Assembly (NCBI RefSeq): GCF_003018115.1
Contig: NZ_CP027457.1
Length of the DNA stretch: 64,000 bases
Origin: Escherichia coli
GTDB taxonomy: Bacteria; Pseudomonadota; Gammaproteobacteria; Enterobacterales; Enterobacteriaceae
Direction: 5' to 3' (one strand)
The notes under the pieces were generated by a model that was given only the letters and a program-made list of their open reading frames with translations, made no database searches and was not told the origin of the DNA. How positions within the stretch are numbered: position 1 is the stretch's first letter; each line of letters starts with the position of its first letter. The translations under genes and the position numbers were made by a program. Shown here one piece after another: positions 1 to 16,403 of this stretch.

Positions 1-17
1 CGTTTGCGCCATTTCAT
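1..17 (-). CDS. fimG: FimG minor fimbrial subunit, first codons only (gene continues beyond window start)
   Basis: Minus-strand ATG at 17 followed by codons reading MKWRK, immediately downstream of fimF in the fim operon order; only 17 nt are visible. Confidence 0.4.
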
Positions 18-29
18 GAGCATCTCCAG

Positions 30-563
30 TTACTGATATTCAAGAGTGAAGGTAGCCGTGGCATTGATATGCCCCGCAGTGACAGGCACCTGTGTCGCCA
101 TTAGCCGGGCGTAAAAATTCAGCGTATTTGGTTTACCCGGCGTCAGGGTCGTCCACGAAAGCGCGGACGATGGAGCATTAAGGGGTATTTGATTTTGCTG
201 CTCATTCAGAAGCTGTATTCCCAGTCCCGAAGCCGCTGACACCGTATTTTCAAGTGCAAGCAGGTTGGCATTGTGGCTATCTGCAACACCGTTAAACCCA
301 ACTTTTACGGCAGAAACGGCATTACCACAGGGTGACAGCAAAATACGAAATGGAACGACAGGAGTCGTCGCGTCAATGTCGTTAAATTGCTTCGCCGCGT
401 TTTCCATCAAATCAACAGTAAAATTGGTTGATTCAGCGGCCACACTACAGCCGTTATCTCTGACATAGCCGCGGATAGTAATCGTGCTATCCGCAGCCAA
501 AGCGTGACTCACCGCCAGCCACAAAAAAGCGCACAGAAGATAAAAAGGTTTGTTTCTCATCAC
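30..563 (-). CDS. fimF: Type 1 fimbrial minor subunit FimF
   Basis: 177-aa ORF starting [23 protein letters not shown] with a signal peptide and pilin-like sequence; position after fimD. Confidence 0.9.
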
Positions 564-569
564 GCCCCC

Positions 570-3206
570 TTAACGACATTCAGCTGATAGCTGGGTTAAT
601 AACTGCTGCTGACTCTCTGGTGGCAGTTGATAATTGGCGACACAGTGAGCATTTTCCTCTTCTCCCCATTTCACCTGAACTTTTCCCGCTAAAGGCATTC
701 CGCTGAGGTAAACCTGACCATTATCCGCAACAATGCCGCTACTCTGGCTACTCTCTGATGTCACCATCGCCCCAAACGGCAGCGGCTTATTATTGTGAGT
801 TAGCGTCATGAGCAGTTTTATCCCAACGCGCGCTTTAAACTCTGCTCGCACGATCGCCCCACGAGTGGGAACAACGTTAGCGACCGCGTTATCTAAATCG
901 ACGTTATCAGCCAAGGTATTGGTATCCAGCGCCACTCTATTTTCCCGATATTCGGTGGCATAAGGCAGCACGGCATAACCGCGCCAGTCGGTACGCACCC
1001 CCGTCTGGTTTTCGACTTTTGCATCTTTTGCGCCAGGCGCTTTAACAAGTACCACCGTATCGTTTAACGGCTGCCCCAGCGTTACGCCATTGGCATGAGC
1101 CAGTACCCCACCGCTGACTCCGTAATAGAGCTGCTTAATATCATCGCTATGGCTGTAACCGATATTGGCATTGCCGTAACCACCGCGATAATTCAGCGTG
1201 GCGTAGCCTGTACTTCCGCTATTACCATCGCCTCCCCCGGCATAGCCGGTTTGCACGCTATAACTGAGGTTGTTGTCTTCCAGCAACGTACCGTATACAC
1301 CAGCCAGATTGGTCATCCGACCGTTGAGATCGTGTGACATGCTGTAGCTAGCACTGGCATGTCGCCACTGAGATTTACTGTCAGAACGCAGCCAGTGGCT
1401 GAAAGGAATATTGACGTTAAGCGCTAACATCTGATCCCGTCCTTTTTGCCAGGCGTTTTTCGTCAGGCTATAGCTGAGCGTCCAGTTGATATCTTCGAAC
1501 GCAGTATTTAATCCAGCCTGGAATTGCTCATCGACATTACTCGTTCCCCAATAAGTTTGATGGCTACCACTCAAATACAGTGTTGATGTGCGCCCGAGTT
1601 GCTGAGTAACGGTGAGCTGTAATTTCCCGCGTTTGTTATAAGCGAGGTTGTAATAGTCGGTGAATTTCGGCTTAACCTGAATAACTCCGTCCTGTGTTTC
1701 GATGTTGTAGCCATTCATTCGACTGTATGTTGTATCAGCGAAATTAAAATATCCGCTGGTCGAATAACGGTAACCCACTAACTGAATATTCGTGCCTGAC
1801 TCATTGAGCGATTTGTTATAGAGAAAACGAACCGATTGTCCGTCATGCTGACTGTCATCGGGAAGTGTGGAATTAGCCTGAGTCATATCCACAGACAGAG
1901 CGCCCAGTGCCCCCATGTTTTTCCCGATACCGAAATTAAAAGCACGATAACGATCTGCCAGTTGCGTTCCACCATATATTGTCCAGCCAGCCGGAAGGCC
2001 GTGGAGTAATGTACTCTGGAAAAAGCGGGGTTTTTCCTGTTGCGCATTTCCACTACGGTATTCTCCTGCCGTAATGGAATAACGAGTATGCCCTTCACGT
2101 TGCAAAAGCGGGACTGACGAATAGGGTACGGTAAAAATCTGCGTGCTGCCGTCAGCCTCTTTAATCGTTACCTGCAAGTCACCACTATTACCTGCGGCAT
2201 AGATATCGTTGATGGTAAAAGGCCCCGGTGGCACCGTACTATTATAAATGTCATACCCATTTTGTTTAATAGTGACCTGTGCAGTACCACGAGCAATACC
2301 GTGGATCACCGGGGCAAATCCTCTTTGGCTATCGGGTAACATATTGTCATCTGAGGCCAATTGTGCGCCGCGAAAGTTAATACCATCGAAAATATCGCCC
2401 TGAGTATAACCATCACCCAGCGTCAGCCGGGAACGTAACGGTATTATGTCTCGCTCAAGCCAGGTATTGATATGCTGCCATTTATTTTTGCTACCTGATG
2501 ATCTGTCGCTACTGTTATAACTCCAGGTGGTATTGTCGCGTAAACGCCACGCACCAATATTTAACCCACTCTGTAGGTTTAAATATGCATAATGGCTGTT
2601 ACCCCCAATCCGATTCTGTACACTATTTCCGCTGAAATTATAATTGAGCAATCCGGCATTAATACCGGGATCCCATAACTCAGGAGGAATATAACCACGC
2701 GCGCGATTACTCATAAATGCCTGAGGGATCGTCAGGTTGAGTCGCTGCTGACCAACATCCAGATGCGCAGTAGCGTCATGGATCATTGAGGTTAATGGCA
2801 CGCAGGCATCATCCGCCAGCAGATTCATACCGGAGACAGAAGCCGTATTCAGCCCCATACTGGCAAGTTGCGCGCGTGTCAGGCAGGGAACAATCCCTTG
2901 TTCGCTGTCGCCCGTATTAAATGTGACATCACGCGTTGCCATATAACCATTATTCAAATAGATATCGACACGATACGTCCCTGGTGGTAATTCTTGCCCA
3001 TTCTCAAAACGCGATAAATCGGCTACAGCCTGGGGATCATCCGCTAAAAAACGCGGGTTAAAATAGAGTTCGGCAGATGACAAAGGTGCCTGTGCGGCAA
3101 AAGCACAGGCAACAAAGAGCCGGACAAAAAAACCAGCCAAATGATGCTTACGAATATGCAAGCATTGTGTGTTTCGCTGGTAAAGTCTTAAATTCAGATA
3201 TGACAT
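570..3206 (-). CDS. fimD: Fimbrial usher outer membrane protein FimD
   Basis: 878-aa ORF, usher-length, between chaperone fimC and fimF; recognised sequence. Confidence 0.93.
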   Translation of the reverse strand: MSYLNLRLYQRNTQCLHIRKHHLAGFFVRLFVACAFAAQAPLSSAELYFNPRFLADDPQAVADLSRFENGQELPPGTYRVDIYLNNGYMATRDVTFNTGDSEQGIVPCLTRAQLASMGLNTASVSGMNLLADDACVPLTSMIHDATAHLDVGQQRLNLTIPQAFMSNRARGYIPPELWDPGINAGLLNYNFSGNSVQNRIGGNSHYAYLNLQSGLNIGAWRLRDNTTWSYNSSDRSSGSKNKWQHINTWLERDIIPLRSRLTLGDGYTQGDIFDGINFRGAQLASDDNMLPDSQRGFAPVIHGIARGTAQVTIKQNGYDIYNSTVPPGPFTINDIYAAGNSGDLQVTIKEADGSTQIFTVPYSSVPLLQREGHTRYSITAGEYRSGNAQQEKPRFFQSTLLHGLPAGWTIYGGTQLADRYRAFNFGIGKNMGALGALSVDMTQANSTLPDDSQHDGQSVRFLYNKSLNESGTNIQLVGYRYSTSGYFNFADTTYSRMNGYNIETQDGVIQVKPKFTDYYNLAYNKRGKLQLTVTQQLGRTSTLYLSGSHQTYWGTSNVDEQFQAGLNTAFEDINWTLSYSLTKNAWQKGRDQMLALNVNIPFSHWLRSDSKSQWRHASASYSMSHDLNGRMTNLAGVYGTLLEDNNLSYSVQTGYAGGGDGNSGSTGYATLNYRGGYGNANIGYSHSDDIKQLYYGVSGGVLAHANGVTLGQPLNDTVVLVKAPGAKDAKVENQTGVRTDWRGYAVLPYATEYRENRVALDTNTLADNVDLDNAVANVVPTRGAIVRAEFKARVGIKLLMTLTHNNKPLPFGAMVTSESSQSSGIVADNGQVYLSGMPLAGKVQVKWGEEENAHCVANYQLPPESQQQLLTQLSAECR

Positions 3207-3272
3207 TATTCCTCCGGTTTAAAATTACCCGGCAGTCAATTCTTTTTATTCAGGCGAGAAATTCCCCCTGCG

Positions 3273-3998
3273 TTATTCCATTACGCCCGTCATTTTGGGG
3301 GTAAGTGCGCCATAATCATTTATTGTTCGGTAAGTAATATTGCTTCCTGCATCAGAAGGCAATTTAACCGTGCTTTCGCCCATTGGAGGCACCAATGCAT
3401 TTTCAAGAACCCGGGTTCCGGCATTCAACTCTGTTACCGTCAGATAATAGGGTGTCGGGTTAATCAGCGTCAGAGAATTCGCGCTACGACGAAATCTTAA
3501 TTTTTCTGCGGCCTGATCGGGTGGCAACGCTAATTTAGCCGGGCGATAGTACAGTTTAATGCGGCTGATAATTGCGAGCTGTAGCGTATTCTCAGTCAAT
3601 TTTGATTTATCCATTGACGGAATCGCTTTAACATTCATCCAGAATAAACTTTCCCGGTCCTGTGGCAATTGGTTATTTGTTGCATCAAGAATACGCAAGG
3701 TATTCTCTTTTTTTCCCTTCATCGCAAACAGAGGAGGCGTCACGATAAAACGACCATCCTTTACACCATCGGCATTTTCCACCCATGATTGAATTAAATA
3801 GGTACTATTTTCATCATTATTTGTCACGGCAAGTTGCACTTGTTTTTGCCCTGCCGGATAAATTACGCGAGTCGCACCTAAGGCCACTCCCGCTTCAGCG
3901 CGTCCGGCAACCATCATTGCCATGAACATCAGGATACCTGCCAGCAAGCAGAATGTTATTTCCTGCGATTTCCTTACATTGACGTTTTTATTACTCAC
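3273..3998 (-). CDS. fimC: Periplasmic pilus chaperone FimC
   Basis: 241-aa ORF with signal peptide; PapD-like chaperone position between fimI and fimD. Confidence 0.92.
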   Translation of the reverse strand: MSNKNVNVRKSQEITFCLLAGILMFMAMMVAGRAEAGVALGATRVIYPAGQKQVQLAVTNNDENSTYLIQSWVENADGVKDGRFIVTPPLFAMKGKKENTLRILDATNNQLPQDRESLFWMNVKAIPSMDKSKLTENTLQLAIISRIKLYYRPAKLALPPDQAAEKLRFRRSANSLTLINPTPYYLTVTELNAGTRVLENALVPPMGESTVKLPSDAGSNITYRTINDYGALTPKMTGVME

Positions 3999-4034
3999 TG
4001 TCCTGTTCCTGTTATCACATTATCTGCTGAACAA

Positions 4035-4574
4035 TTACTGATAGGTTAAAGAGAACCAGGCCTGGGCATTGGCGATGCCGCCAGTAACCCGACGCCCGGT
4101 AGCACGATATTTGGCGATGAAATGTAGCGAAGTAGAGCCTGAGTAAAGCCGTTTCCAGTTTACTGGAGGACGATTAATCGGTACGAGGTTTCCTTCATCA
4201 TCAAACAACGCTACGCCAATATTGGTGGCTATCCCTGGCCCCTCTCCCACGGAAAGCACATCCGGATTTTTACCATCCGCGACACCGTGAAACGCCACAC
4301 CCACACGTTCACTCACCACCGTGCTACATTCCCGTAAATGAATAACAAAAGGCACCGGTGCGCTATCTTCCCCTACCGCATGAAACCGGTTACTGCTGAT
4401 TTGCCCCATATTGACCGTCATTTGTTTATCACCGGCTTCAATCCGGCAAGTTTCCGCAATAATGACGCCCTGAAATTGCATATTTCCGCCGGGCAGCGTG
4501 GTATTCCATTTATTTCCGGCCAGAGCAAACATTGGCAGCAACGACGCTAATAGAAATAATCTCTTCCTTTTCAT
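4035..4574 (-). CDS. fimI: Fimbrin-like protein FimI
   Basis: Track ORF 4035..4706; internal start [19 protein letters not shown] at 4574 gives a 179-aa pilin-like protein with signal peptide. Confidence 0.85.
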
Positions 4575-4638
4575 CGTTATTTTTATCGCACAAGGGTGGG
4601 CATCCCTGCCCGTAATGACGTCCCTGAACCTGGGTAGG

Positions 4639-5187
4639 TTATTGATACTGAACCTTGAAGGTCGCATCCGCATTAGCTGCGCCAGGGGTTGCGACACCGG
4701 TTGCATAATAACGCGCCTGGAACGGAATGGTGTTAGTACCGTTATTCAGGGTTGTTTGCTCACTGAATGTCGCACCATCCAGCGTCAGCGCAGCACCCGT
4801 TCTGTCCAGGATCTGCACACCAACGTTTGTTGCGCTACCCGCAGCTGAACTCTGCAGAGCCAGAACGTTGGTATGACCCGCATCAATCGCCGTACCTAAA
4901 AAGGCAACTGCGGCTTTAGATGCAACATTGGTATCGCAATCATTCAGCTGAATGTTAAAACCGACAGCAGAACTGGTTGCTCCTTCCTGTGCCAGCGATG
5001 CGGTACGAACCTGTCCTAACTGAACGGTTTGATCAACAGAGCCTGCATCAACTGCGCAAGCGGCGTTAACAACTTCCCCTTTAAAGTGAACGGTCCCACC
5101 ATTAACCGTCGTGGCAGCGGCCAGAGCCGCTGTAGAACTGAGGGACAGAGCCGACAGAACAACGATTGCCAGAGTTTTAATTTTCAT
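4639..5187 (-). CDS. fimA: Type 1 fimbriae major subunit FimA
   Basis: Track ORF 4639..5244; start [23 protein letters not shown] at 5187 gives a 182-aa major pilin. Confidence 0.92.
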
Positions 5188-5306
5188 GCTGCTTTCCTTT
5201 AAAAAAACTATTTCTAAATCGACATGGGCAGTCGTTCTGTACACTTTGTTTTGTCAACGAGTTTGACTGCCAACACTGCACAGTTTTCCCCCAAAAGATG
5301 AAACAT

Positions 5307-5620
5307 TTGGGGCCATTTTGACTCATAGAGGAAAGCATCGCGTACAAACTTTTTCAGTTTATTTGTTGGCTTAATATTCTATTGTTATCTTTATTTATAG
5401 ATTTTTATATTGCATGAGGTGGTTTTTGGAGAGAAGAATGAGGAAGATGCGTCGAGCCACAGAAACGTTAGCTTTACATATAGCGGAGGTGATGTGAAAT
5501 TAATTTACAATAGAAATAATTTACATATCAAACAGTTAGATGCTTTTTGTCGTTTTTTAATATTTTTATGCTTGAGAAAAAATACGTAACTTATTTATGA
5601 TATGGACAGTTTGGCCCCAA
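5307..5620. mobile_element. fimS: fimS invertible element (fim switch), 314 bp bounded by 9-bp inverted repeats TTGGGGCCA (5307-5315) and TGGCCCCAA (5612-5620); apparent OFF orientation
   Basis: Inverted repeats read directly from the sequence at the expected place between fimE and fimA. A sigma70-like promoter TTGAGA-N18-TATGAT lies just inside the fimE-proximal repeat and reads on the + strand, away from fimA. Confidence 0.85.
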
Positions 5621-5667
5621 TTGTCTTGTATTTATTTGTTTTTTAACTTTATTATCAATAAGTTAAA

Positions 5668-6264
5668 TCAAACCTCTTCTCTTTTTAATTTTTCGTTTAT
5701 GAGATTATTTCTTTCCCATAATCCGGCAAAACGAGCAGCATTACTGGCGGTATAACGCACAGTATGGCGAATATTTCGATGCCCGAGATAATCCTGAATT
5801 AAACGAGTATCTGCACCACGCTCCGCCAGTTCATAACCGCAAGCATGCCTTAACATATGAGGATGAGTCTGCGTTACGGTTCCAGCTTCAATACCGGCAT
5901 CGCGAATAATGCGATAGGCCTGCTGGCGAGAAAGCCGACTCCCGCGGCGAGAAATAAATATGGCGTCGGTCCGGTCAGCGCCTTTCCAGTTAGCACGTTC
6001 CAGGGTCCAGCGTTCCACAGCTTCACGCTCATCAAAACGTAACGGGTGAACGGTAGAAAATCCGTTCTTCAGTCGGCGAATATTTATTCGACCTTCATTA
6101 AGGTCAAGATCCTGATAATGCAGATCAAGCAGTTCACTAATACGCATCCCATGCCGATATGCCAACAGAATAAGACAATAATCTCTGGCTCCCGTTGCCC
6201 CGTAACAAACCGCCTGCATCATGGCCTGAACTTCTTTACCGGTAAGATAACGACGTTTACTCAC
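5668..6264 (-). CDS. fimE: Tyrosine site-specific recombinase FimE (switch ON-to-OFF)
   Basis: 198-aa ORF starting MSKRRYLTGKEVQAMM with the conserved HxxR...Y recombinase C-terminus; adjacent to fimS. Confidence 0.93.
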   Translation of the reverse strand: MSKRRYLTGKEVQAMMQAVCYGATGARDYCLILLAYRHGMRISELLDLHYQDLDLNEGRINIRRLKNGFSTVHPLRFDEREAVERWTLERANWKGADRTDAIFISRRGSRLSRQQAYRIIRDAGIEAGTVTQTHPHMLRHACGYELAERGADTRLIQDYLGHRNIRHTVRYTASNAARFAGLWERNNLINEKLKREEV

Positions 6265-6741
6265 AATAGTAGTACTCCTGACTGAGATATATTTAAATGA
6301 ATACCTATAGGAAACCTCAATCGGTCAAAATTAGCCCAATAGATAAAAAGATAACCACACACGAAGTGATGTGGCTATCAGTCAATTACATTAAATATCA
6401 TACAAAAATAAAATATCACTGATGTGACAACATCTATTTTCATTGATTTGATTCAATATAACAATAGATTGCAGTAGATTAGCTTCCAGTTGCTTAAAAA
6501 ATAAAGAAAAAAGTGCGAAAACAGGAGAATTTAAGTGATGTGTAAATTTATGAATGATTTTGTTTATTTATTTTGAAGAACATAAACCATTGTATTTTGT
6601 ATGGATATGGTTAACTTAATGTTTATTATGATAATTAAGAATCATACTTACAATAACATCAATTAATAAATGCTTAATCATTTTTGATATATCGTAAGAA
6701 TAATGTTGTTTTTAACACCATCCCTGGTATCTCAACTATCT

Positions 6742-7344
6742 CTATAAAACAGCGTGACGCTGTCGTCCTCTGGCTCTATCCCAGATGCCGTAAAAACGCC
6801 CTGCATTGCTGGCGGTATACCAGACAGTATGACGAATATTGCGATGCCCAAGATAATCCTGGATAAGTCGCGTATCTATTCCCATATTCGCCAAAGCAAA
6901 ACCACACGAATGGCGTAACATGTGCGGATGAATCTCCAGTGACAACCCGGCATTACCACCGGAAGTCGAGATAATATGGTAAAATTGTTGCCGAGAAAGC
7001 GGATTCCCCTTACGCGATAAAAATACCCACTCGCTCTCAGCATGCGGATACGAAGTACGGATACTCAACCAGTTTTTTAAAGCCTGAACTTCTTTGTTCA
7101 ATAGCGGGTGCGTTGTTGAAAAGCCTTTTTTTAATCGATGGATATATATACACTTTGCCTTAAGATCAATATCCGAAATCCTCAATCGACAAATTTCACT
7201 CGCCCGGAAACCATGAATAAAACAAAGCAAAGTCAGACAATAATTACGTGCTGCATGAGGCCCGGTATTTGCTGCTTTAAGGAGTGATTCGATTTCACTA
7301 TGGGTCAGGAAGTTCCTTTTTTTGTTTTCAGCCTTATTCTTCAT
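6742..7344 (-). CDS. fimB: Tyrosine site-specific recombinase FimB
   Basis: Track ORF 6742..7374; start MKNKAENKKRNFLTHSEIE at 7344 gives 200 aa; paralogue of FimE. Confidence 0.92.
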   Translation of the reverse strand: MKNKAENKKRNFLTHSEIESLLKAANTGPHAARNYCLTLLCFIHGFRASEICRLRISDIDLKAKCIYIHRLKKGFSTTHPLLNKEVQALKNWLSIRTSYPHAESEWVFLSRKGNPLSRQQFYHIISTSGGNAGLSLEIHPHMLRHSCGFALANMGIDTRLIQDYLGHRNIRHTVWYTASNAGRFYGIWDRARGRQRHAVL

Positions 7345-8359
7345 CGTTTTTCCCTTATAATTACAGACGCGCACTAGCTGTGCTGGGTTAGCAATAATCC
7401 AACATTTTTATCCTGATTATGTTTATAAAAGCGAACGTTTGCTTAATAACTAACGTAAGTGGACCAGTTCTTCTGAGTGAACTTAAATGGAGTAGCAACA
7501 GTTAATTATAATAACGTTGCCATACAAACGCTATGCTCTTGCATGCTATGTACCTTTATATATTTATCAATCGGATACGAATCTAATAATAACCCTCATC
7601 ATTAATGCAACTAATCTTATCTATATATCATGTGATATGTTCTGTAACAAGTAAAATCAACATAAAAAATTCAGCAAAATTTAATATTCGTTCAACTAGC
7701 CGTCTCACATATGACATTATTAGTCAACTCCATTTGCCACAAAATGGCTATTTCATGGAACACAGTAATTTCTTAGTGGCTATTATCAAGCTAATTCTTA
7801 GGTCCCTAGCGATTATTCCTGGCTGGTTCGTCAGTTTAAGCCATGAGATTGTTACATTCCTTTTTATCCTGGAGATATGGGGGAACGCAGGAGACGATTT
7901 TTTCATCTACATTCGTTGGTAAATATGGCTTTGGTCACTGCGACTTAAACCTTCCTCAATCACAGCCATTCGCCGGGCGATACGGCAAACAAACTAAGTG
8001 AAACATCATCCTGAAAACACCAACATCAACAAGCCTCTCCAGATCGACTTCAGAAGTGACCAGTTACAAGCCACAAACCAGGAAACATATTTCATGATGA
8101 GAATTATGCTCAGCCTGATGGCGGGTAAACACTGATTTTCATCAAACTCACTGAGTTAGCTTGCAAAGCTTTCCTTGTTTAGACTCTAAATAAATTATTT
8201 ATAAAACAAATATTTAAACGAAGATCTTTAGTTTTTGAAGACCACCGCAAGTGTTCGTCTGGCTTCACATGGCATCTTCCTCTTAGAAAAAGATCGACAT
8301 ATTTTGTGACACGAATTGCAAATCTGGTTTTGTTGTATGGATTGCGTGATTTTTGATCT

Positions 8360-8378
8360 GGTATAACAGGTATAAAGG
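8360..8378. promoter_or_regulatory. Putative NanR operator (tandem GGTATA repeats: GGTATAACAGGTATAAAGG) in the fimB-nanC intergenic region
   Basis: Two GGTATA hexamers spaced as in NanR operators, read directly; location in the long AT-rich intergenic region known to carry NanR/NagC sites controlling fimB and nanC. Confidence 0.5.
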
Positions 8379-8788
8379 TGCACCAAGATAGTCAATGAGA
8401 CAGGGCATCTCGCAATCTCTGGCAAACATCACTTCAGTTCTTTCTCATCGGGTGATGAAAACGCACTTCAGTCTGAAAGGAATATGAAAATGAGATCAAC
8501 AGACACTCTATTTTATGACTCTGGGTAAAATGAATTGAGTAAGTGATATAGCTTACGAACATTCAAATCAATTAAACATCAGAAGAGATTTTATACTCAG
8601 GTATTTAATCTGGCTCTCTGTTTATTTAAATAATGTGGAAAGAGAATTTTCACAGGAGACCTTATACAAAAAATATAAAATAAGCTACCCGTTGCCAAAG
8701 ACACTATAAGCCTGGCAAAAAATATTACACAACATAAATGCTAATTGTTTATGCGGGCTTTGTTTTGCTTTCTGTATCCTACAAATGA

Positions 8789-9514
8789 GTGAAATTTATG
8801 AAAAAGGCTAAAATACTTTCTGGCGTATTATTACTGTGCTTTTCGTCACCATTAATTTCTCAGGCTGCGACACTGGACGTACGTGGTGGATATCGTAGCG
8901 GAAGCCATGCCTATGAGACTCGACTCAAAGTCAGTGAGGGATGGCAAAATGGATGGTGGGCAAGCATGGAAAGTAATACCTGGAATACCATTCATGATAA
9001 TAAAAAGGAAAATGCCGCACTCAATGATGTTCAGGTTGAAGTTAATTACGCGATTAAACTTGATGAGCAATGGACGGTGCGCCCGGGAATGTTAACGCAT
9101 TTTAGCAGCAACGGCACACGCTACGGACCCTACGTAAAACTGTCCTGGGACGCGACAAAAGATCTTAATTTTGGCATTCGCTATCGTTACGACTGGAAAG
9201 CTTACCGACAACAAGACTTATCCGGTGATATGTCTCGTGATAACGTTCATCGTTGGGATGGATATGTCACTTACCATATTAATAGTGATTTCACCTTCGC
9301 ATGGCAAACGACGCTATACAGCAAACAGAACGATTATCGCTATGCAAACCATAAGAAATGGGCGACGGAAAATGCATTTGTTCTACAATACCATATGACG
9401 CCCGATATTACGCCATACATAGAATATGACTACCTGGACCGTCAGGGTGTTTACAACGGCAGAGATAATTTATCGGAAAACAGTTATCGCATTGGTGTGT
9501 CATTTAAACTGTAG
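8789..9514 (+). CDS. nanC: N-acetylneuraminic acid outer membrane channel NanC (KdgM family)
   Basis: 241-aa ORF with signal peptide ...LLLCFSSPLISQAATLDVRGG and beta-barrel porin-like sequence ending in F-K-L. Confidence 0.9.
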   Translation: MKFMKKAKILSGVLLLCFSSPLISQAATLDVRGGYRSGSHAYETRLKVSEGWQNGWWASMESNTWNTIHDNKKENAALNDVQVEVNYAIKLDEQWTVRPGMLTHFSSNGTRYGPYVKLSWDATKDLNFGIRYRYDWKAYRQQDLSGDMSRDNVHRWDGYVTYHINSDFTFAWQTTLYSKQNDYRYANHKKWATENAFVLQYHMTPDITPYIEYDYLDRQGVYNGRDNLSENSYRIGVSFKL

Positions 9515-9533
9515 TAGACAGGAGACAGTCACA

Positions 9534-10640
9534 ATGAATAAAACAATAACGGCGCTTGCTATCATGATGGCTTCATTTGCCGCAAACGCGTCTGTATTAC
9601 CGGAAACTCCTGTGCCATTTAAAAGTGGTACCGGAGCAATTGATAACGACACTGTCTACATTGGTTTAGGTAGCGCAGGTACGGCATGGTACAAGCTGGA
9701 TACACAGGCCAAAGATAAAAAATGGACAGCGTTAGCTGCATTCCCTGGTGGAACAAGAGATCAAGCAACCTCGGCATTTATTGATGGCAATCTGTATGTG
9801 TTTGGCGGCATTGGCAAAAATAGCAAGGGCTTGACTCAGGTATTTAATGACGTACACAAATACAACCCCAAAACCAATAGTTGGGTTAAATTGATGTCGC
9901 ACGCACCGATGGGCATGGCAGGTCATGTGACTTTTGTACACAACGGCAAGGCTTATGTTACTGGCGGTGTTAACCAGAATATCTTCAATGGCTATTTTGA
10001 AGATCTCAACGAGGCTGGAAAAGATTCAACCGCTGTAGATAAAATCAACGCTCACTATTTTGACAAAAAAGCAGAAGATTATTTCTTCAATAAGTTTCTG
10101 TTGTCTTTTGATCCCTCAACACAGCAATGGAGTTACGCTGGCGAATCTCCCTGGTACGGAACGGCTGGTGCGGCGGTTGTGAATAAAGGTGATAAAACCT
10201 GGCTTATTAATGGTGAAGCCAAACCAGGATTGCGAACGGATGCCGTATTTGAACTTGATTTCACCGGTAATAATTTAAAATGGAATAAGCTTGCTCCCGT
10301 CTCATCACCAGATGGCGTCGCTGGCGGTTTTGCGGGGATAAGCAATGATTCTCTTATATTTGCCGGAGGGGCCGGATTCAAAGGTTCACGAGAAAATTAC
10401 CAAAACGGTAAGAACTATGCGCATGAAGGCCTGAAAAAATCATATAGCACTGATATTCATCTTTGGCATAACGGGAAATGGGATAAATCGGGTGAATTAT
10501 CGCAAGGTCGGGCCTACGGAGTATCATTGCCCTGGAATAATAGTCTATTGATTATTGGCGGTGAAACTGCAGGCGGCAAAGCGGTGACGGATTCAGTTTT
10601 GATCTCTGTGAAGGATAATAAAGTTACAGTACAAAACTAA
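9534..10640 (+). CDS. nanM: N-acetylneuraminate mutarotase NanM (Kelch-repeat protein)
   Basis: Internal start MNKTITALAIMMASFAANA at 9534 with RBS GGAGA upstream; 368 aa, repeated GG/W Kelch-like motifs. Confidence 0.88.
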   Translation: MNKTITALAIMMASFAANASVLPETPVPFKSGTGAIDNDTVYIGLGSAGTAWYKLDTQAKDKKWTALAAFPGGTRDQATSAFIDGNLYVFGGIGKNSKGLTQVFNDVHKYNPKTNSWVKLMSHAPMGMAGHVTFVHNGKAYVTGGVNQNIFNGYFEDLNEAGKDSTAVDKINAHYFDKKAEDYFFNKFLLSFDPSTQQWSYAGESPWYGTAGAAVVNKGDKTWLINGEAKPGLRTDAVFELDFTGNNLKWNKLAPVSSPDGVAGGFAGISNDSLIFAGGAGFKGSRENYQNGKNYAHEGLKKSYSTDIHLWHNGKWDKSGELSQGRAYGVSLPWNNSLLIIGGETAGGKAVTDSVLISVKDNKVTVQN

Positions 10641-10704
10641 CGCTTCAGGGCCCCAGTAAAGGGGCCCTGCTATCAATTTGTCATTTCAATTACGCGAAAT
10701 TTAT

Positions 10705-11685
10705 ATGAACGCAATAATATCGCCTGATTATTACTATGTTCTTACCGTTGCTGGTCAGTCTAATGCCATGGCGTATGGCGAAGGACTGCCATTACCGGAC
10801 AGGGAAGATGCGCCTCATCCAAGAATTAAACAATTAGCGAGATTTGCGCATACGCATCCCGGAGGCCCGTCATGTCACTTTAACGACATTATTCCACTGA
10901 CTCACTGCCCACACGATGTTCAGGATATGCAGAGTTATCACCATCCTCTGGCAACGAATCATCAAACACAGTACGGCACCGTTGGCCAGGCACTGCATAT
11001 TGCACGGAAATTACTGCCCTTTATTCCTGATAACGCAGGGGTTCTCATCGTTCCATGTTGCCGTGGCGGATCGGCTTTTACCGCGGGCAGCGAGGGGACA
11101 TATTCAGAACGGCACGGAGCCAGCCATGATGCTTGTCGTTGGGGAACGGATACTCCGCTGTACCAGGATTTAGTCAGCAGAACGCGAGCCGCACTGGCAA
11201 AAAATCCGCAGAACAAATTCCTCGGCGTATGCTGGATGCAAGGCGAATTTGACTTAATGACCAGTGACTACGCGTCACACCCTCAACACTTTAATCATAT
11301 GGTTGAAGCCTTTCGTAGGGATCTAAAACAATACCATTCTCAGCTGAATAATATTACTGACGCGCCGTGGTTTTGCGGCGATACCACCTGGTACTGGAAA
11401 GAAAATTTCCCTCATGCGTATGAAGCTATTTATGGCAATTATCAAAATAATGTTTTAGCCAATATTATTTTCGTCGACTTCCAGCAACAAGGTGAAAGAG
11501 GACTGACGAACGCGCCTGATGAAGATCCGGACGATTTAAGCACGGGATATTACGGTTCAGCGTACCGGTCACCGGAGAACTGGACGACGGCACTGCGAAG
11601 CAGTCATTTCAGCGCGGCAGCCCGTCGGGGGATTATTTCTGACAAGTTTGTAGAAGCAATTTTGCAGTTTTGGCGCGAAAGGTGA
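10705..11685 (+). CDS. nanS: 9-O-acetyl-N-acetylneuraminate esterase NanS (SGNH hydrolase)
   Basis: Start MNAIISPDYYYVLTVAGQSNAMAYG, 326 aa; GQSN block typical of SGNH esterases. Confidence 0.88.
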   Translation: MNAIISPDYYYVLTVAGQSNAMAYGEGLPLPDREDAPHPRIKQLARFAHTHPGGPSCHFNDIIPLTHCPHDVQDMQSYHHPLATNHQTQYGTVGQALHIARKLLPFIPDNAGVLIVPCCRGGSAFTAGSEGTYSERHGASHDACRWGTDTPLYQDLVSRTRAALAKNPQNKFLGVCWMQGEFDLMTSDYASHPQHFNHMVEAFRRDLKQYHSQLNNITDAPWFCGDTTWYWKENFPHAYEAIYGNYQNNVLANIIFVDFQQQGERGLTNAPDEDPDDLSTGYYGSAYRSPENWTTALRSSHFSAAARRGIISDKFVEAILQFWRER

Positions 11686-11839
11686 GCGTTCATTAATTTG
11701 ATTTATTCGCATCCATCAGCGCTTTTAACTCCTCCGGCGTAAACGGTGGTTTGCGTCGGTGCAACATCGCATGGCAATTAGGGCACACAGGCAGCAAAAA
11801 AACAAATGAGATCAAAGTAATATATCTTCACTTGCAGGC

Positions 11840-12769
11840 TTGAACAGCAGAAAATTTGCGAGCATGATCGCAATTATTTCACTGCCAGGGATATCAATGG
11901 CTTCCAGTAAATCGCTACAGCAGGCAATTGCCAACATAAAAATCTGGCACAAGGGTGAACAGCGCGCGCCGCATAAGCCATTGTTATTGCTATACGTATT
12001 AGCGGGATACCTGAATGGACATCCACGCCTTTTCGATTATGGCTCGGAAATCTACGAACCTCTGCACAGTTTACTGGAACGTTTTGGGCCACAGCGTTCA
12101 CAGTACCGACCTGATATGCCGTTCTGGCGATTACAAGGCGACGGATTCTGGCAATTACACAATGCCGAGCTTTGCTCAACAGCAGGGAGCAGCCGACAAC
12201 CGCCAGTGAAGGAACTGAACGAATACCACGTTGCAGGCGGTTTCGATGAACAGCACTACGCCCTGGTAACCGGCAATAAAAAACTCATTAATACTCTGGC
12301 ACAACAGATACTCGAAGCGCACTTCACCGAGAGTATTCAGGAAGAAATCGCTGACGAGTTGGGTTTTGACCTCCAGCAAATCCGTAAGCAACGCGACCCG
12401 TTATTTCGCAGACTTGTATTACGCGCCTATAACTACCAGTGCGCGATATGTGGCTTTAATATGCGCCACGATGACACTACCGTCGCGCTGGAAGCGGCAC
12501 ATATAAAATGGAAACAGCACGGCGGTCTTTGTGAAATTCCTAATGGCCTGGCGCTTTGCGCAATTCACCATAAAGCCTTTGATAAAGGATCGATTGGCCT
12601 GGACGAAAATATGCGGGTACTGGTATCAGATGCGGTAAACGGCGGAGGGATCGTTGAGAGATTATTCTGGGATTTTGACGGGAAAACTATTGCGTTACCA
12701 CAGGTGCGTAAAAATTACCCTTTTGAGGGGTTTGTAGAGTGGCATCGGAAAGAGGTTTTTAGGGGGTGA
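11840..12769 (+). CDS. HNH-motif endonuclease with an uncharacterised N-terminal domain (possible modification-dependent restriction-type nuclease)
   Basis: 309-aa ORF; C-terminal YQCAICGF...AAHIKW...LCAIHHKAFDKG is a Cys/His HNH-type motif. An alternative start MASSKSLQQ at 11897 has an AGGGA RBS. Family assignment of the N-terminal domain is not possible by eye. Confidence 0.7.
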   Translation: MNSRKFASMIAIISLPGISMASSKSLQQAIANIKIWHKGEQRAPHKPLLLLYVLAGYLNGHPRLFDYGSEIYEPLHSLLERFGPQRSQYRPDMPFWRLQGDGFWQLHNAELCSTAGSSRQPPVKELNEYHVAGGFDEQHYALVTGNKKLINTLAQQILEAHFTESIQEEIADELGFDLQQIRKQRDPLFRRLVLRAYNYQCAICGFNMRHDDTTVALEAAHIKWKQHGGLCEIPNGLALCAIHHKAFDKGSIGLDENMRVLVSDAVNGGGIVERLFWDFDGKTIALPQVRKNYPFEGFVEWHRKEVFRG

Positions 12770-12810
12770 GATTGATAACTATCGCAGTATGTTCAATATT
12801 GCTGACATAA

Positions 12811-12993
12811 TCAGTGCAGGATCTTGCCGCTAGTTTACAACTCGCCTTCGATAGCGGCGCAAAACGAGTTCTGTTGCCGATATCCTCGGCTATGGATATT
12901 CCAACAGTTCCGGCAGAGTTGTTTACCAAGTTTCAGGTAAGTTTTTTCTCAGAACCGGTTGATGCGGTTTATAAGGCGCTGGATGTGAATTAA
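12811..12993 (+). pseudogene. Remnant encoding the C-terminal ~60 aa of a Lon-like protease domain (BrxL/Lon-type)
   Basis: Frame opens just after a TAA at 12808-12810 and reads ...SGAKRVLLPISSAMDIPTVPAELFTKFQVSFFSEPVDAVYKALDVN*, which resembles the extreme C-terminus of Lon proteases (...GIKTVLIP...IP...V...EVL..AL). No upstream body of the gene is present. Confidence 0.5.
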
Positions 12994-13326
12994 CACATTC
13001 CTCAGCTTATTTACAAAAGGATTATTCCCATTTGATATAATATCAGTGCCAATTTACTTTTTTCAATGAAATATATCTCGGCTAAATAACAATAAAACTT
13101 ATCGCTAATGGATTAAATAAACAATTTTCTAATTCATTTCACCACCTTTGATATAGAAATTGATGGTGTTGTCGTTGCCATTGCTTATGGTGATGATAAA
13201 ATCCACGTTTCTGGATCGTTGCGTAGAAAATCATCACTGCCTTGATATTTTGATGCGATATAATCATACCGTTCCGTAGTACCAATTTCAATTTCAGGCT
13301 AAACCCCAACATTAAAAAAAATTAGA

Positions 13327-13375
13327 GTTATTCACTGATTATATTATATTATCAATAATATAATCAGTGAATAAC
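13327..13375 (-). terminator. Perfect 21-bp inverted repeat (7-nt loop) downstream of the 682-aa ORF, followed on the minus strand by a T8 run; probable intrinsic terminator
   Basis: GTTATTCACTGATTATATTAT / ATAATATAATCAGTGAATAAC arms read directly; T-run lies about 6 nt past the stem on the minus strand. Confidence 0.55.
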
Positions 13376-13397
13376 ATGGACTATATAATAAATTGCT

Positions 13398-15446
13398 CTA
13401 ATCATTTCCCTTACGAATATATGGGCCAAAAGCCCAAGAATCATAATAAGGGTGATGGACTAATTTTTCATTAAATCGAACACTATAAGTTAATTTTTTT
13501 ATATTTTTACGTACAGCATTAATACTGGGCAAAGAGGAAAGATAATCTATAAACTTATCGATAGTGATTTCCCCTTCGCAACACTCAAACCCATCAATGA
13601 TATTTTTCGCCATTTTTCCATTTTCATTTGTTTGATATATCACTCCAGGTATTCGTTGAAAAAAACTAGATAATGCATATTTGTCCGCTACATATGTATC
13701 ATCCACATGATATTTCCCACCGAGCATAGTTGTAGTAACAATAAGCTTATACACACCTTTGGGTTGCCATGTTGATGGTAGTTCGAATTCTTTAATGATC
13801 ACATCAAGATGATTAAGATAATGTTCAGAAATTCGATTTATTTGTTGAAAATAAGAACGCATAAATTTATTATTATGATCATGTATTAATGAGCTATCTC
13901 CAACGATGTTACACACTTGCTGATAGTACTTACCATAATATATTGGTTGACCATTTGATTTTAGTTCTGTAAAAATCAAAAAATCATCCAGGAGAATCAC
14001 GCAATCGCACTGATAATTAGCATGAGCATCAATTGAAGAAGCTTTAATCCCCGCATCACGAACTTGTTTTATAAATTGTTGCTCATGAAATCGCCCTTTA
14101 CTTGCTTGAGAAATTTTTTTGGAACCAAATAATGACATTAGAGAGCGAGTCACTGAGCTATTTGCTATTAATGCAGGCATTAAGCATAAACCGTCCATAC
14201 AGGGAATAAATGGGCAATCATTAAGATCATGTGATTTTGAATTGAAGGTAAAATAATCTATCAGTTTTTTTGCTGCATCCGCTGCAATCCCCTTACGTTG
14301 AAAGAATGATAACCAACTCTCACGGCTTTTTATGATCAGCCAGCGATCCAACTGTAGGGGTATAGGTTTTGTCGATGAAAATCTTTTGCTCATTTCTTCT
14401 TTAGATAACTCGACTAAACATTGATAAGCGTGCACCCAATTAAATAATGATATATTCCCATATTCTTCATGAAGGTCATCAGGAGACATATTTTCCAACT
14501 CGCTTAGATGAAATGAGCTAAAAACGCCATCAGAATTTAAGTAAGATGGCATATGATCCTTTACCCAACTATTTAGATGAAAATGTTTGTTACTAAATTC
14601 ATGAACTTCGCTATATAGATGTGACGCTCTCATCATTAGTCTATTTCTTGCAATCTCATAATCTCGGTATAAACAAAAACTATCAACCTCAAGAGAGTAA
14701 ATGTTATTATCCAATTTTGTAAATACTGCACTACTTAGTCTGAAAAAGTCTCTTACTCTGCTTAATGAGTCAAAAACATTCCACTCATTAAGGTACCCTC
14801 CCATTGAAAGCAAGGTTTGTTTATTCACACAAGAAGTTAGTTTCAATGGCCCATGAGTCCGTAAATAAGAAAATATTCTTCCGGTGTAATTGGCTACCTC
14901 ATCAAATGCCCTATCGATAACTCGAAAATATTCGATATCAGGTTCAGCATGAATATTAATATTTTCAGAAACGATAAATAATGGAAAAATCCTCTTCATT
15001 TTTTTAGGATCATTGACCACAACCAAGGATGATAATGATGATAAAAACATCTCACAAAACATGATGAGATTAAGTATTAATGCATGTGATTTTTTTGTAT
15101 TTTTACGCCAAATACCAGCACATTTTGTAGCCGCAAAGAAAGAATTATTTATATCATGCATAATTTTACATTGACTCTCGAACTCAGAGATTAGTTCAAT
15201 GTTATCAGGAAATGAGTTTACTAGCTCATTAATACATTTTTTGAATGTATTGTTATACTCAACTTCAGTCTGAACTGAAAATCTATTATAATAGATGGAA
15301 GATATTCTCAGCACATCCAAGGCGATATCTATACTAATATCATCTCTTTTTATGTACTCACAAAAAAAAGAACAAAACTGTTTCGGGTCGTTAGCAAGAT
15401 TACTAATTCTAGTAGTATCATAAACTTTTTCCATTTTTCCATACAT
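13398..15446 (-). CDS. Orphan AT-rich 682-aa protein of unknown function; candidate defence or nuclease protein with a possible PD-(D/E)XK-like motif
   Basis: Uninterrupted 2 kb ORF with RBS AGGA before the ATG; composition visibly far more AT-rich than flanking core genes; no Walker A, HNH or other motif I recognise except E~455 ... D~481 ... E494-L-K496 (QCDCVILLDDFLIFTELK). Confidence 0.75.
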   Translation of the reverse strand: MYGKMEKVYDTTRISNLANDPKQFCSFFCEYIKRDDISIDIALDVLRISSIYYNRFSVQTEVEYNNTFKKCINELVNSFPDNIELISEFESQCKIMHDINNSFFAATKCAGIWRKNTKKSHALILNLIMFCEMFLSSLSSLVVVNDPKKMKRIFPLFIVSENINIHAEPDIEYFRVIDRAFDEVANYTGRIFSYLRTHGPLKLTSCVNKQTLLSMGGYLNEWNVFDSLSRVRDFFRLSSAVFTKLDNNIYSLEVDSFCLYRDYEIARNRLMMRASHLYSEVHEFSNKHFHLNSWVKDHMPSYLNSDGVFSSFHLSELENMSPDDLHEEYGNISLFNWVHAYQCLVELSKEEMSKRFSSTKPIPLQLDRWLIIKSRESWLSFFQRKGIAADAAKKLIDYFTFNSKSHDLNDCPFIPCMDGLCLMPALIANSSVTRSLMSLFGSKKISQASKGRFHEQQFIKQVRDAGIKASSIDAHANYQCDCVILLDDFLIFTELKSNGQPIYYGKYYQQVCNIVGDSSLIHDHNNKFMRSYFQQINRISEHYLNHLDVIIKEFELPSTWQPKGVYKLIVTTTMLGGKYHVDDTYVADKYALSSFFQRIPGVIYQTNENGKMAKNIIDGFECCEGEITIDKFIDYLSSLPSINAVRKNIKKLTYSVRFNEKLVHHPYYDSWAFGPYIRKGND

Positions 15447-16123
15447 CCTATTGTCTAAATTACTATAAAACTAGCCACTTAACTAATAATTATAAATTTC
15501 ATCTTTTACACCTTGCATTTTTATAACCAATGAAATCTACAACAAGCAACTGATGGATAATCCGATATTGGTCGCATTTAATGGCATGGTAGCAAAGTTT
15601 TCATCACATACCTCCTTTGCACCAGAATAAACGCCAGAGACCTGAAATTGCGAGTACACTACAGAAATTGTACTGCCGGTCCCATCAGCATAAAACCATA
15701 GTTACACAGGTAATCATCATTATTCGCCAAGATAATAAATATTATTCGGTAGAATAGCGTTCTCAGGTGGTCAGTAAAATTGTCTTCAACAAGATGTCTG
15801 CGCATCTCGTCTGCTAGCCCTACATAACTGCTCTCGACCGAAACTATTTATTGAATGTTCACCAAGGTGGGCGTGGAGACAAAATGACGTCTTTTGATAT
15901 TAGCTACCTGAGCCACATGGTCAAAACGTTCAAGTAGCATAGCGAAACCACCCTGCCCACGTAATGTGGACGATGCAGCTTCCAGCCAGAGCAAACTTGG
16001 GACCATCGACTACAAAATGAAGAATACTGAACTGCTTTTCTGGCAGGCCTATATACTGCACGGATATGGGTGATTTCAGGCACAAAAAAAGCCGCCCTTA
16101 AGCGACTCGATTTGCATACGGTG

Positions 16124-16208
16124 TGGTGCCGAAGGCCGGACTCGAACCGGCACGTATTTCTACGGTTGATTTTGAATCAACTGCGTCTACCGATTTCGCC
16201 ACTTCGGC
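16124..16208 (-). tRNA. leuX: tRNA-Leu (leuX-type, CAA anticodon), 85 nt ending CCA
   Basis: Reverse complement reads GCCGAAGTGGCGAAATCGGTAGACGCAGTTGATTCAAAATCAACCGTAGAAATACGTGCCGGTTCGAGTCCGGCCTTCGGCACCA; type II tRNA with long variable arm. Confidence 0.9.
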
Positions 16209-16403
16209 ACTGAAGAGGTATGCGGAAAACGTTGTGGATTATACCTGTCGCACGCCACCATGCAAGCGCCAGCTTGCTCGCACCTCGCTAAGTGCTGAAA
16301 TTTTCAGCATTGCATACAGCGATGTGTAACCTTTGTCACACTCCAGGCACCCCGCCCTGCCATGCTCTACACTTCCCAGACAACACCAGAGAAGGACCAA
16401 AAA

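Follow-up and report, generated by a model that had tools for sequence, protein, structure and literature searches.

What kind of protein is encoded by the AT-rich reading frame that lies beside the tRNA gene leuX of Escherichia coli, and what might be its role there? This question was raised by a stretch of 64,000 nucleotides from contig NZ_CP027457.1 (RefSeq assembly GCF_003018115.1), called the window below. A preliminary description of the window, made from the letters alone, had singled out an open reading frame (ORF) at 13398–15446 as an orphan of no known enzyme family, and had proposed a horizontally acquired, stand-alone defence protein. We assign the predicted product, with high confidence, to the PD-(D/E)xK nucleases, and probably to those of the NERD type. 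From the gene neighbourhoods and the logic of the domains we consider it moderately probable that this protein is a self-contained sensor-nuclease of defence, acting by the mechanism proposed below.

The ORF ran on the minus strand without interruption for 682 codons of protein. An AlphaFold2 model was made from a 68-sequence alignment (predicted local distance difference test 91.0, predicted template-modelling score 0.90), and the protein was divided into four parts by the order of its secondary-structure elements and by conservation. Identities are those to distant members of the family.

13398–15446, minus strand: ORF of the NERD-family protein, 682 amino acids (aa), stop codon included, from the ORF translation
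14457–15446, minus strand: N-terminal all-alpha domain, aa 1–330, 14% identity, putative sensor or regulatory module
14112–14456, minus strand: middle domain, aa 331–445, 28% identity
13647–14111, minus strand: NERD-type PD-(D/E)xK nuclease core, aa 446–600, 28% identity
13401–13646, minus strand: C-terminal small alpha/beta domain, aa 601–682, 17% identity (601–672)
14082–14084, 14004–14006, 13965–13967 and 13959–13961, minus strand: catalytic codons of E455, D481, E494 and K496, respectively

The nuclease core had the order alpha-beta-beta-beta-alpha-beta in the model, which is that of a restriction-endonuclease-like fold. The translation of 13959–14084 reads EQQF...CDCVILLDDFLIFTELK and places E455, D481, E494 and K496 exactly at the numbers that had been counted by hand in the preliminary description. 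Among the 68 homologues (16–56% identity), P412, G451, D481, E494, K496 and D588 were invariant (68/68), E455 was kept in 97%, and Q535, R538, R598, D407 and D410 were each kept in at least 93%. In the model the motif was placed on a helix (450–464) and two strands (479–486 and 489–496). The PD-(D/E)xK core that had been suspected from the spacing of four residues was thus borne out by both conservation and fold.

The other three parts were less easily named. The middle domain carried a near-invariant S-x-D407-L-x-D410-C-P412 motif (nt 14211–14228), and from the order of its helices and strands in the model we infer a winged-helix-like structure. In the C-terminal domain the last ~10 residues were disordered. 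The N-terminal domain appeared to be the fastest-evolving part, because many distant family members of normal length aligned only from about residue 300 on; its ~330 residues had no Pfam or PDB match and no convincing structural match. A Foldseek search of the whole model against the PDB gave nothing significant.

The core probably belongs with the NERD branch (PF08378) of the PD-(D/E)xK nucleases, with which it had in common the G-x3-E ... D ... E-x-K signature and the alpha-beta-beta-beta-alpha-beta core. The Pfam model of NERD matched 3 of the 68 family members at E<=1e-3, and 11 when the limit was E<=0.1, but the member from E. coli lay below detection; Card1_endonuc, Mrr_cat and Hjc were weak alternative matches among the members. 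Close homologues (41–75% identity) were found in Salmonella, Izhakiella, Xenorhabdus, Pectobacterium and Pantoea. When 1.84 billion cluster representatives were searched with a profile, 361 clusters were matched at E<=1e-3, of which 47 were at E<=1e-30; these were clusters at 50% identity, most of them full-length at 620–690 aa. They spanned Enterobacterales, Bacillota and other phyla, and included Bacillus cereus/thuringiensis, B. velezensis, B. safensis, Brevibacillus and Ruminiclostridium. Foldseek against AFDB50 gave 364 matches at E<=0.001; the 50 matches listed included full-length models with TM scores of 0.67–0.96, and most of the 50 were named "NERD domain-containing protein" by UniProt. 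They came from Salmonella, Bacillus, Paenibacillus, Listeria, Enterococcus, Streptococcus, Clostridium, Legionella, Rhizobium and a planctomycete. With 361 clusters and an automatic NERD annotation in UniProt, the ORF could no longer be called an orphan.

These relatives were supplied by the searches with profiles and against AFDB50. Pfam, PDB and PADLOC, which the preliminary description had suggested, gave for the E. coli protein itself nothing usable beyond a marginal match to PDC-M29B. The two-gene candidate PDC-M29 was ruled out on that marginal match to its component B and on the lack of a conserved partner gene. A Pfam match of the E. coli protein to PHB_depo_C (E 0.43) was judged spurious. 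A sequence search of the PDB found no match, and the family profile gave there only a match at 0.065 to an integrase fragment. Word-index searches with two family alignments added no further named relatives, and no mention of accession WP_001719407.1 was found in the literature searched.

The composition of the gene was foreign. As the preliminary description had it, the ORF was clean, about 2 kb long and AT-rich, with a GC content of 0.327 (0.257 at third codon positions) compared with 0.547 (0.609) in the neighbouring core gene ahr. Its true start is likelier to be the second ATG, at 15434, which would give a protein of 678 aa equal to WP_001719407.1, since this is the start given in RefSeq and the one favoured by the N-termini of all homologues. 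The AGGA that had been taken for the ribosome-binding site was present (15449–15446), but it overlaps the first ATG, the less likely start. The surroundings of the gene were as follows.

13327–13375, minus strand: perfect 21-bp hairpin with a T-run, likely intrinsic terminator of the ORF
15447–16075 (629 bp), minus strand: upstream spacer, presumed promoter site
15578–15604, within the upstream spacer (15578–15617 with the Shine-Dalgarno region): mini-ORF of 8 codons, MKTLLPCH, behind AAGGAGG
16124–16208, minus strand: tRNA-Leu(CAA) gene leuX, anchor of the hotspot, from Rfam

The arms of the inverted repeat (13327–13347 and 13355–13375) enclosed a loop of 7 nt, and the hairpin started 23 bp past the stop codon, with the T-run following on the minus strand; the hairpin described earlier was therefore confirmed. 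So was the distance to the tRNA gene, 678 bp from the 3′ end of leuX to the start of the ORF, which had been put at about 680 bp. The mini-ORF stood behind a near-perfect AAGGAGG Shine-Dalgarno sequence ~130–155 nt upstream of the gene start, and may encode a leader peptide or be what is left of a lost gene. An Rfam scan of 12700–16300 matched the tRNA only and nothing at the mini-ORF.

Of the 5426 complete E. coli genomes searched, 359 (6–7%) carried the gene, in 334 of them over 80% or more of the query, and in 330 of the 359 records identity to the query was at least 99%. The preliminary description had called for such a comparison, on the view that a gene kept by all E. coli at this position would speak against its proposal; it is not so kept. 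Given the foreign composition and the patchy presence, the gene is horizontally acquired, as had been proposed. The upstream spacer occurred in 336 of the 5426 genomes, and the similar counts (334 and 336, compared as totals and not as overlapping sets) suggest that gene and spacer were inherited together as one module. Most E. coli shared only leuX and its terminator on one flank and the nanS or phosphorothioate (PT)-endonuclease side on the other. The segment of ~2.8 kb from ~13281 to 16075 is therefore most likely a module of one gene that reached the leuX defence hotspot by horizontal transfer.

A phage origin of this module was rejected. No match was obtained by tblastn in 50,697 phage records, and the four IMG/VR matches were E. 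coli chromosomal stretches with a P4-like satellite. This satellite (Psu, repressor and a split primase; IMG/VR UViG_2627854098_000007, 1–7300) occupied leuX in some E. coli. At its end stood a degenerate repeat of the 3′ end of the tRNA gene (GTTTGAGTCCGGCCTTC-GCACCA), with the spacer and the NERD gene close behind it. The NERD gene thus lay outside the degenerate attR. The gene was on these four "viral" contigs because the satellite had integrated at leuX next to it. No second copy of the leuX 3′ end was found within the window, so the island had no att boundary here.

The site itself is a known one. leuX is E. coli hotspot #37, with the highest occupancy of 41 defence islands, and it commonly houses BREX and PT-related systems (PMC12707154). 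The role of leuX as an integration and defence hotspot, mentioned in the preliminary description, is in agreement with this, and defence genes or their relics adjoined the gene in the window. From the truncated nanS to leuX the island was a patchwork of an HNH fragment, a PT-dependent endonuclease, a 3′ relic of brxL and DNA from a BREX flank.

11840–12769, plus strand: gene for a phosphorothioated-DNA-binding (SBD-HNH) restriction endonuclease, from NF045808 (430.7 bits)
12814–13280, plus strand: BREX-1 locus relic, from the brxL profile and homology to strain 90-1

The relic began with the last 59 codons of brxL at 12814–12993 (TIGR02653, E 7e-24; PADLOC BrxL, E 1e-18), followed by ~290 bp homologous to the DNA after brxL in strains with an intact BREX-1, as in strain 90-1, where the matching stretch extends into the start annotated for a PLD-like gene. 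The resemblance to the BREX locus stopped at ~13280, about 45 bp before the hairpin, and this point is the junction of the NERD module. Because the rest of BREX has been deleted, the island is the scar of an older defence system. The PT-dependent endonuclease was convergent with the NERD ORF, as the preliminary description had said of an HNH nuclease gene, but it was not the immediate neighbour, the BREX relic lying between them to ~13280.

A similar arrangement was met on plasmids. A match of ~100 bp to the interior of the ORF, at 84% nucleotide identity, was found on 12 E. coli plasmids, 10 of which were predicted to be conjugative. On the one that was inspected (NZ_CP010234.1, IncHI1B, mobilizable, strain S30), an unannotated relic of ~115 bp of a diverged NERD allele (locus 2983–3097, corresponding to 14235–14334 of the window, aa 372–415) was cut off by insertion-sequence elements and stood ~140 bp past an intact BREX-1 brxL, on the opposite strand. 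Thus the order of brxL followed by a reversed NERD gene occurred in two diverged lineages.

Such adjacency would fit a protein that depended on a BREX-1 (or PT-based) system, as its auxiliary or back-up effector, and was left alone here by the deletion of the BREX genes. The gene was convergent with the adjoining brxL relic in the window, a relic of its diverged allele followed an intact brxL on the plasmid, and back-up suicide effectors have been proposed at Dnd boundaries and in BREX (PMC10853773, PMC12839542). However, a BREX gene was present in 0 of 12 contexts from other genera, and ~334 E. coli carriers have kept the gene essentially unchanged beside only a 180-nt stub of brxL. We regard a BREX-dependent role as improbable.

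nanS (sialate O-acetylesterase) was without its C-terminus and was followed by an HNH endonuclease fragment of ~105 bp on the minus strand (10706–11798); at this boundary the island has eaten into the nan operon. In strain S1bESBLb (NZ_CP159453.1, locus 1036–4509 and 7618–9654) the same island held on its nan side a type II Zorya system (zorA2, zorB2 and zorE), and an intact HNH endonuclease of 216 aa where the window held only the fragment. The PT-dependent endonuclease was an intact ORF of 309 aa in the window, matching 2–284 of the 284 positions of the NCBIfam profile; the corresponding gene of strain F8111-1SC3 was flagged as frameshifted by RefSeq. It looked like a solitary Type IV-like enzyme, because no dnd modification genes were seen near it.

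Does the gene act alone? In 13 loci of different genera, an all-against-all BLASTP of the flanking ORFs within 5 kb on each side found no shared neighbour except two chance pairs of housekeeping genes. The unit is therefore a single gene, as the preliminary description had supposed. The conserved adjacent partner expected of a toxin-antitoxin pair or a two-gene abortive infection system was absent from these loci.

Many of the neighbourhoods were rich in defence genes or mobile elements. In B. cereus and R. hungatei the gene lay directly past a prophage lysis cassette, adjoining in B. cereus a pPIWI-RE gene. One homologue was cargo of a Tn7-like element together with Gabija (GajA/GajB), a Schlafen/AlbA_2 protein and a WYL regulator, another was in an integrase island with KAP NTPase, SNase, Mrr and PIN genes, and that of Pectobacterium was in a P4-type integrase island. 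The Brevibacillus homologue adjoined smpB, immediately after a PD-Lambda-5 A+B pair. In B. safensis (CP194763.1, locus 5077–12485) the gene stood beside the candidate defence gene PDC-S59 and a gene of 112 aa. This group was flanked by a topoisomerase gene of 729 aa and a topoisomerase-domain gene of 329 aa, and may be a small defence islet inserted into one split topoisomerase gene. In a plain tally, with no formal statistic, defence genes or mobile-element cargo were seen at about half of 14 contexts.

A lone nuclease in such company might also be a solitary modification-dependent (Type IV-like) restriction endonuclease, in which the helical and winged-helix region would read a modification of phage DNA and the NERD core would cut, no methylase being needed. 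In line with this, a cognate methyltransferase was absent from the 13 loci, the gene of the window adjoined another Type IV-like enzyme (the PT-dependent SBD-HNH nuclease), and the conserved middle domain appeared winged-helix-like. Yet D12 methyltransferases were near the gene in two contexts, the opposite of what such an enzyme would be expected to need. On balance this explanation seems rather unlikely.

Instead we propose that the soluble product of ~678 aa would act as a self-contained effector against phages or mobile elements. The N-terminal and middle regions would recognise a cue of infection (a phage protein or foreign nucleic acid), and this recognition would release or target the metal-dependent nuclease, which would cut the nucleic acid of the invader and possibly that of the host. 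The proposal leaves room for DNA or RNA as substrate and for direct or abortive protection. At the sequence level it is established that the catalytic residues have been under long-term constraint and that the gene has repeatedly landed in defence hotspots; for a role in defence or abortive infection the case is circumstantial.

Several observations weigh against this proposal. A sensor role of the N-terminal region is pure conjecture. The E. coli protein had no match to Pfam NERD at E<=10 and none in NCBIfam or PHROGs, and in PADLOC v2.0.0 it gave only the marginal match to PDC-M29B, over 52 residues of the catalytic strands (E 0.0023). Several homologues stood between housekeeping genes with no defence gene nearby, and the allele of strain S1bESBLb had an internal stop. 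The window contained neither an integrase nor an att repeat, and the module is accordingly a piece of a decayed patchwork and not an active element.

The homologues among housekeeping genes and the internal stop, along with the truncated genes of the island, would also suit a protein with no immune role, such as a nuclease for a mobile element or for DNA repair and recombination, or a relic that is drifting in this strain. NERD domains occur outside defence systems as well. Against such a role, the catalytic residues were invariant across very distant homologues, the E. coli records were nearly identical as described above, and the largest protein cluster had 3303 full-length members of 678 aa. 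The gene was moreover patchy, low in GC and found repeatedly in hotspots (tRNA, tmRNA/smpB, prophage ends and Tn7 cargo) beside defence genes, and it had no phage homologues and was not tied to any one element. We give a non-immune role only a slim chance.

If the defence protein proposed here is protective, the E. coli repertoire would gain one more self-contained sensor-nuclease, and a function would be provided for at least 361 protein clusters (50% identity) of Enterobacterales (E. coli, Salmonella), Bacillota and other phyla, including AlphaFold entries from Bacillus, Listeria, Enterococcus, Streptococcus and Clostridium whose present labels say no more than "NERD domain-containing" or "hypothetical". 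The N-terminal domain, for which no match was found, would then open a new way to study how a single protein senses infection, and the repeated adjacency of brxL and the NERD gene would bear on the view that back-up effectors sit at the boundaries of BREX. If the protein is not protective, the locus is one more decayed patch of the leuX island. More tentatively, the "long NERD" proteins of ~650 aa could be an undescribed and phylogenetically broad single-protein immune system, with the helical N-terminal domain as a new infection sensor gating the NERD nuclease; the leuX allele would be a tractable model, possibly against RNA as well as DNA phages.

How does the protein compare with known systems? 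Upx, Shedu and ZwsA may be taken, by analogy, as design precedents for sensing and nuclease activity in one protein. In Upx the middle domain auto-inhibits the N-terminal exonuclease domain, and the phage protein gp16 relieves this inhibition (PMC13099982). Like Upx, the E. coli protein is a single polypeptide with non-catalytic domains on either side of a canonical PD-(D/E)xK core; unlike it, Upx has 1212 aa and two nuclease domains, the canonical core being C-terminal, and a second core was not evident in the E. coli protein. Identity with Upx (Gao_Upx) was ruled out, with no match to the PADLOC hidden Markov model of Upx, 11% sequence identity and no dual-nuclease architecture of ~1200 aa. 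Shedu (SduA) has a DUF4263 nuclease with variable N-terminal sensor domains, whereas the E. coli protein has a NERD core and another N-terminal architecture; it had no PADLOC match to Shedu and no DUF4263, and this identity was likewise ruled out.

ZwsA (Zowangsin) of P. aeruginosa, a stand-alone protein of 716 aa with the order VHS-DUF647-NERD-S4, cleaves the genomes of RNA phages, and its catalytic residues are E535/D567/E580/K582 (bioRxiv 10.64898/2026.04.06.716636). Both it and the E. coli protein (716 and 678 aa) are stand-alone multidomain NERD proteins encoded by single genes in defence islands. Their gross plan is the same: a long N-terminal helical region and a middle domain precede a NERD core, whose E/D/ExK tetrad falls in the C-terminal half of the chain, and a small domain forms the C-terminus. 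The spacing from D to E-x-K is 13 in both. One may therefore ask if the E. coli protein is a ZwsA-like, RNA-targeting NERD endonuclease that guards against RNA coliphages (MS2/Qbeta-like). By the published description and residue numbers, with which the comparison was made, motif positions and spacing differed: E to D is 32 in ZwsA and 26 here, with 134 and 186 residues, respectively, past the lysine. The ZwsA residue numbering was found in 0 of 265 family proteins fetched. The C-terminal domain had been thought S4-like from "ITIDKFIDYL" and the order helix-helix-hairpin, and this was dropped, since hhalign against an S4 profile of rpsD, hslR, rluD and ybcJ (a weak profile of 4 sequences) gave a probability of 0.1%; hmmsearch found no S4 domain either. 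A ZwsA-like function is considered improbable.

The NERD core makes up only ~150 of the 680 residues, and the other three quarters are outside any described family. The full-length architecture, above all the N-terminal domain, is outside the described systems compared here. The NERD modules of PglW (BREX type 2), DndF and the stand-alone NERD genes at Dnd boundaries belong to the same nuclease family (PMC12839542, PMC10853773), but in E. coli the domain is part of a distinct protein of ~680 aa that occurs mostly without BREX or Dnd. Comparative genomics has led to proposed functions for stand-alone NERD endonucleases that border Dnd gene neighbourhoods, in some cases encoded in reverse, and for auxiliary nucleases found in BREX systems (PMC10853773, PMC12839542). 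The NERD gene beside leuX resembles these boundary genes in its place at the edge of a system and on the opposite strand, the system here being the relic of BREX.

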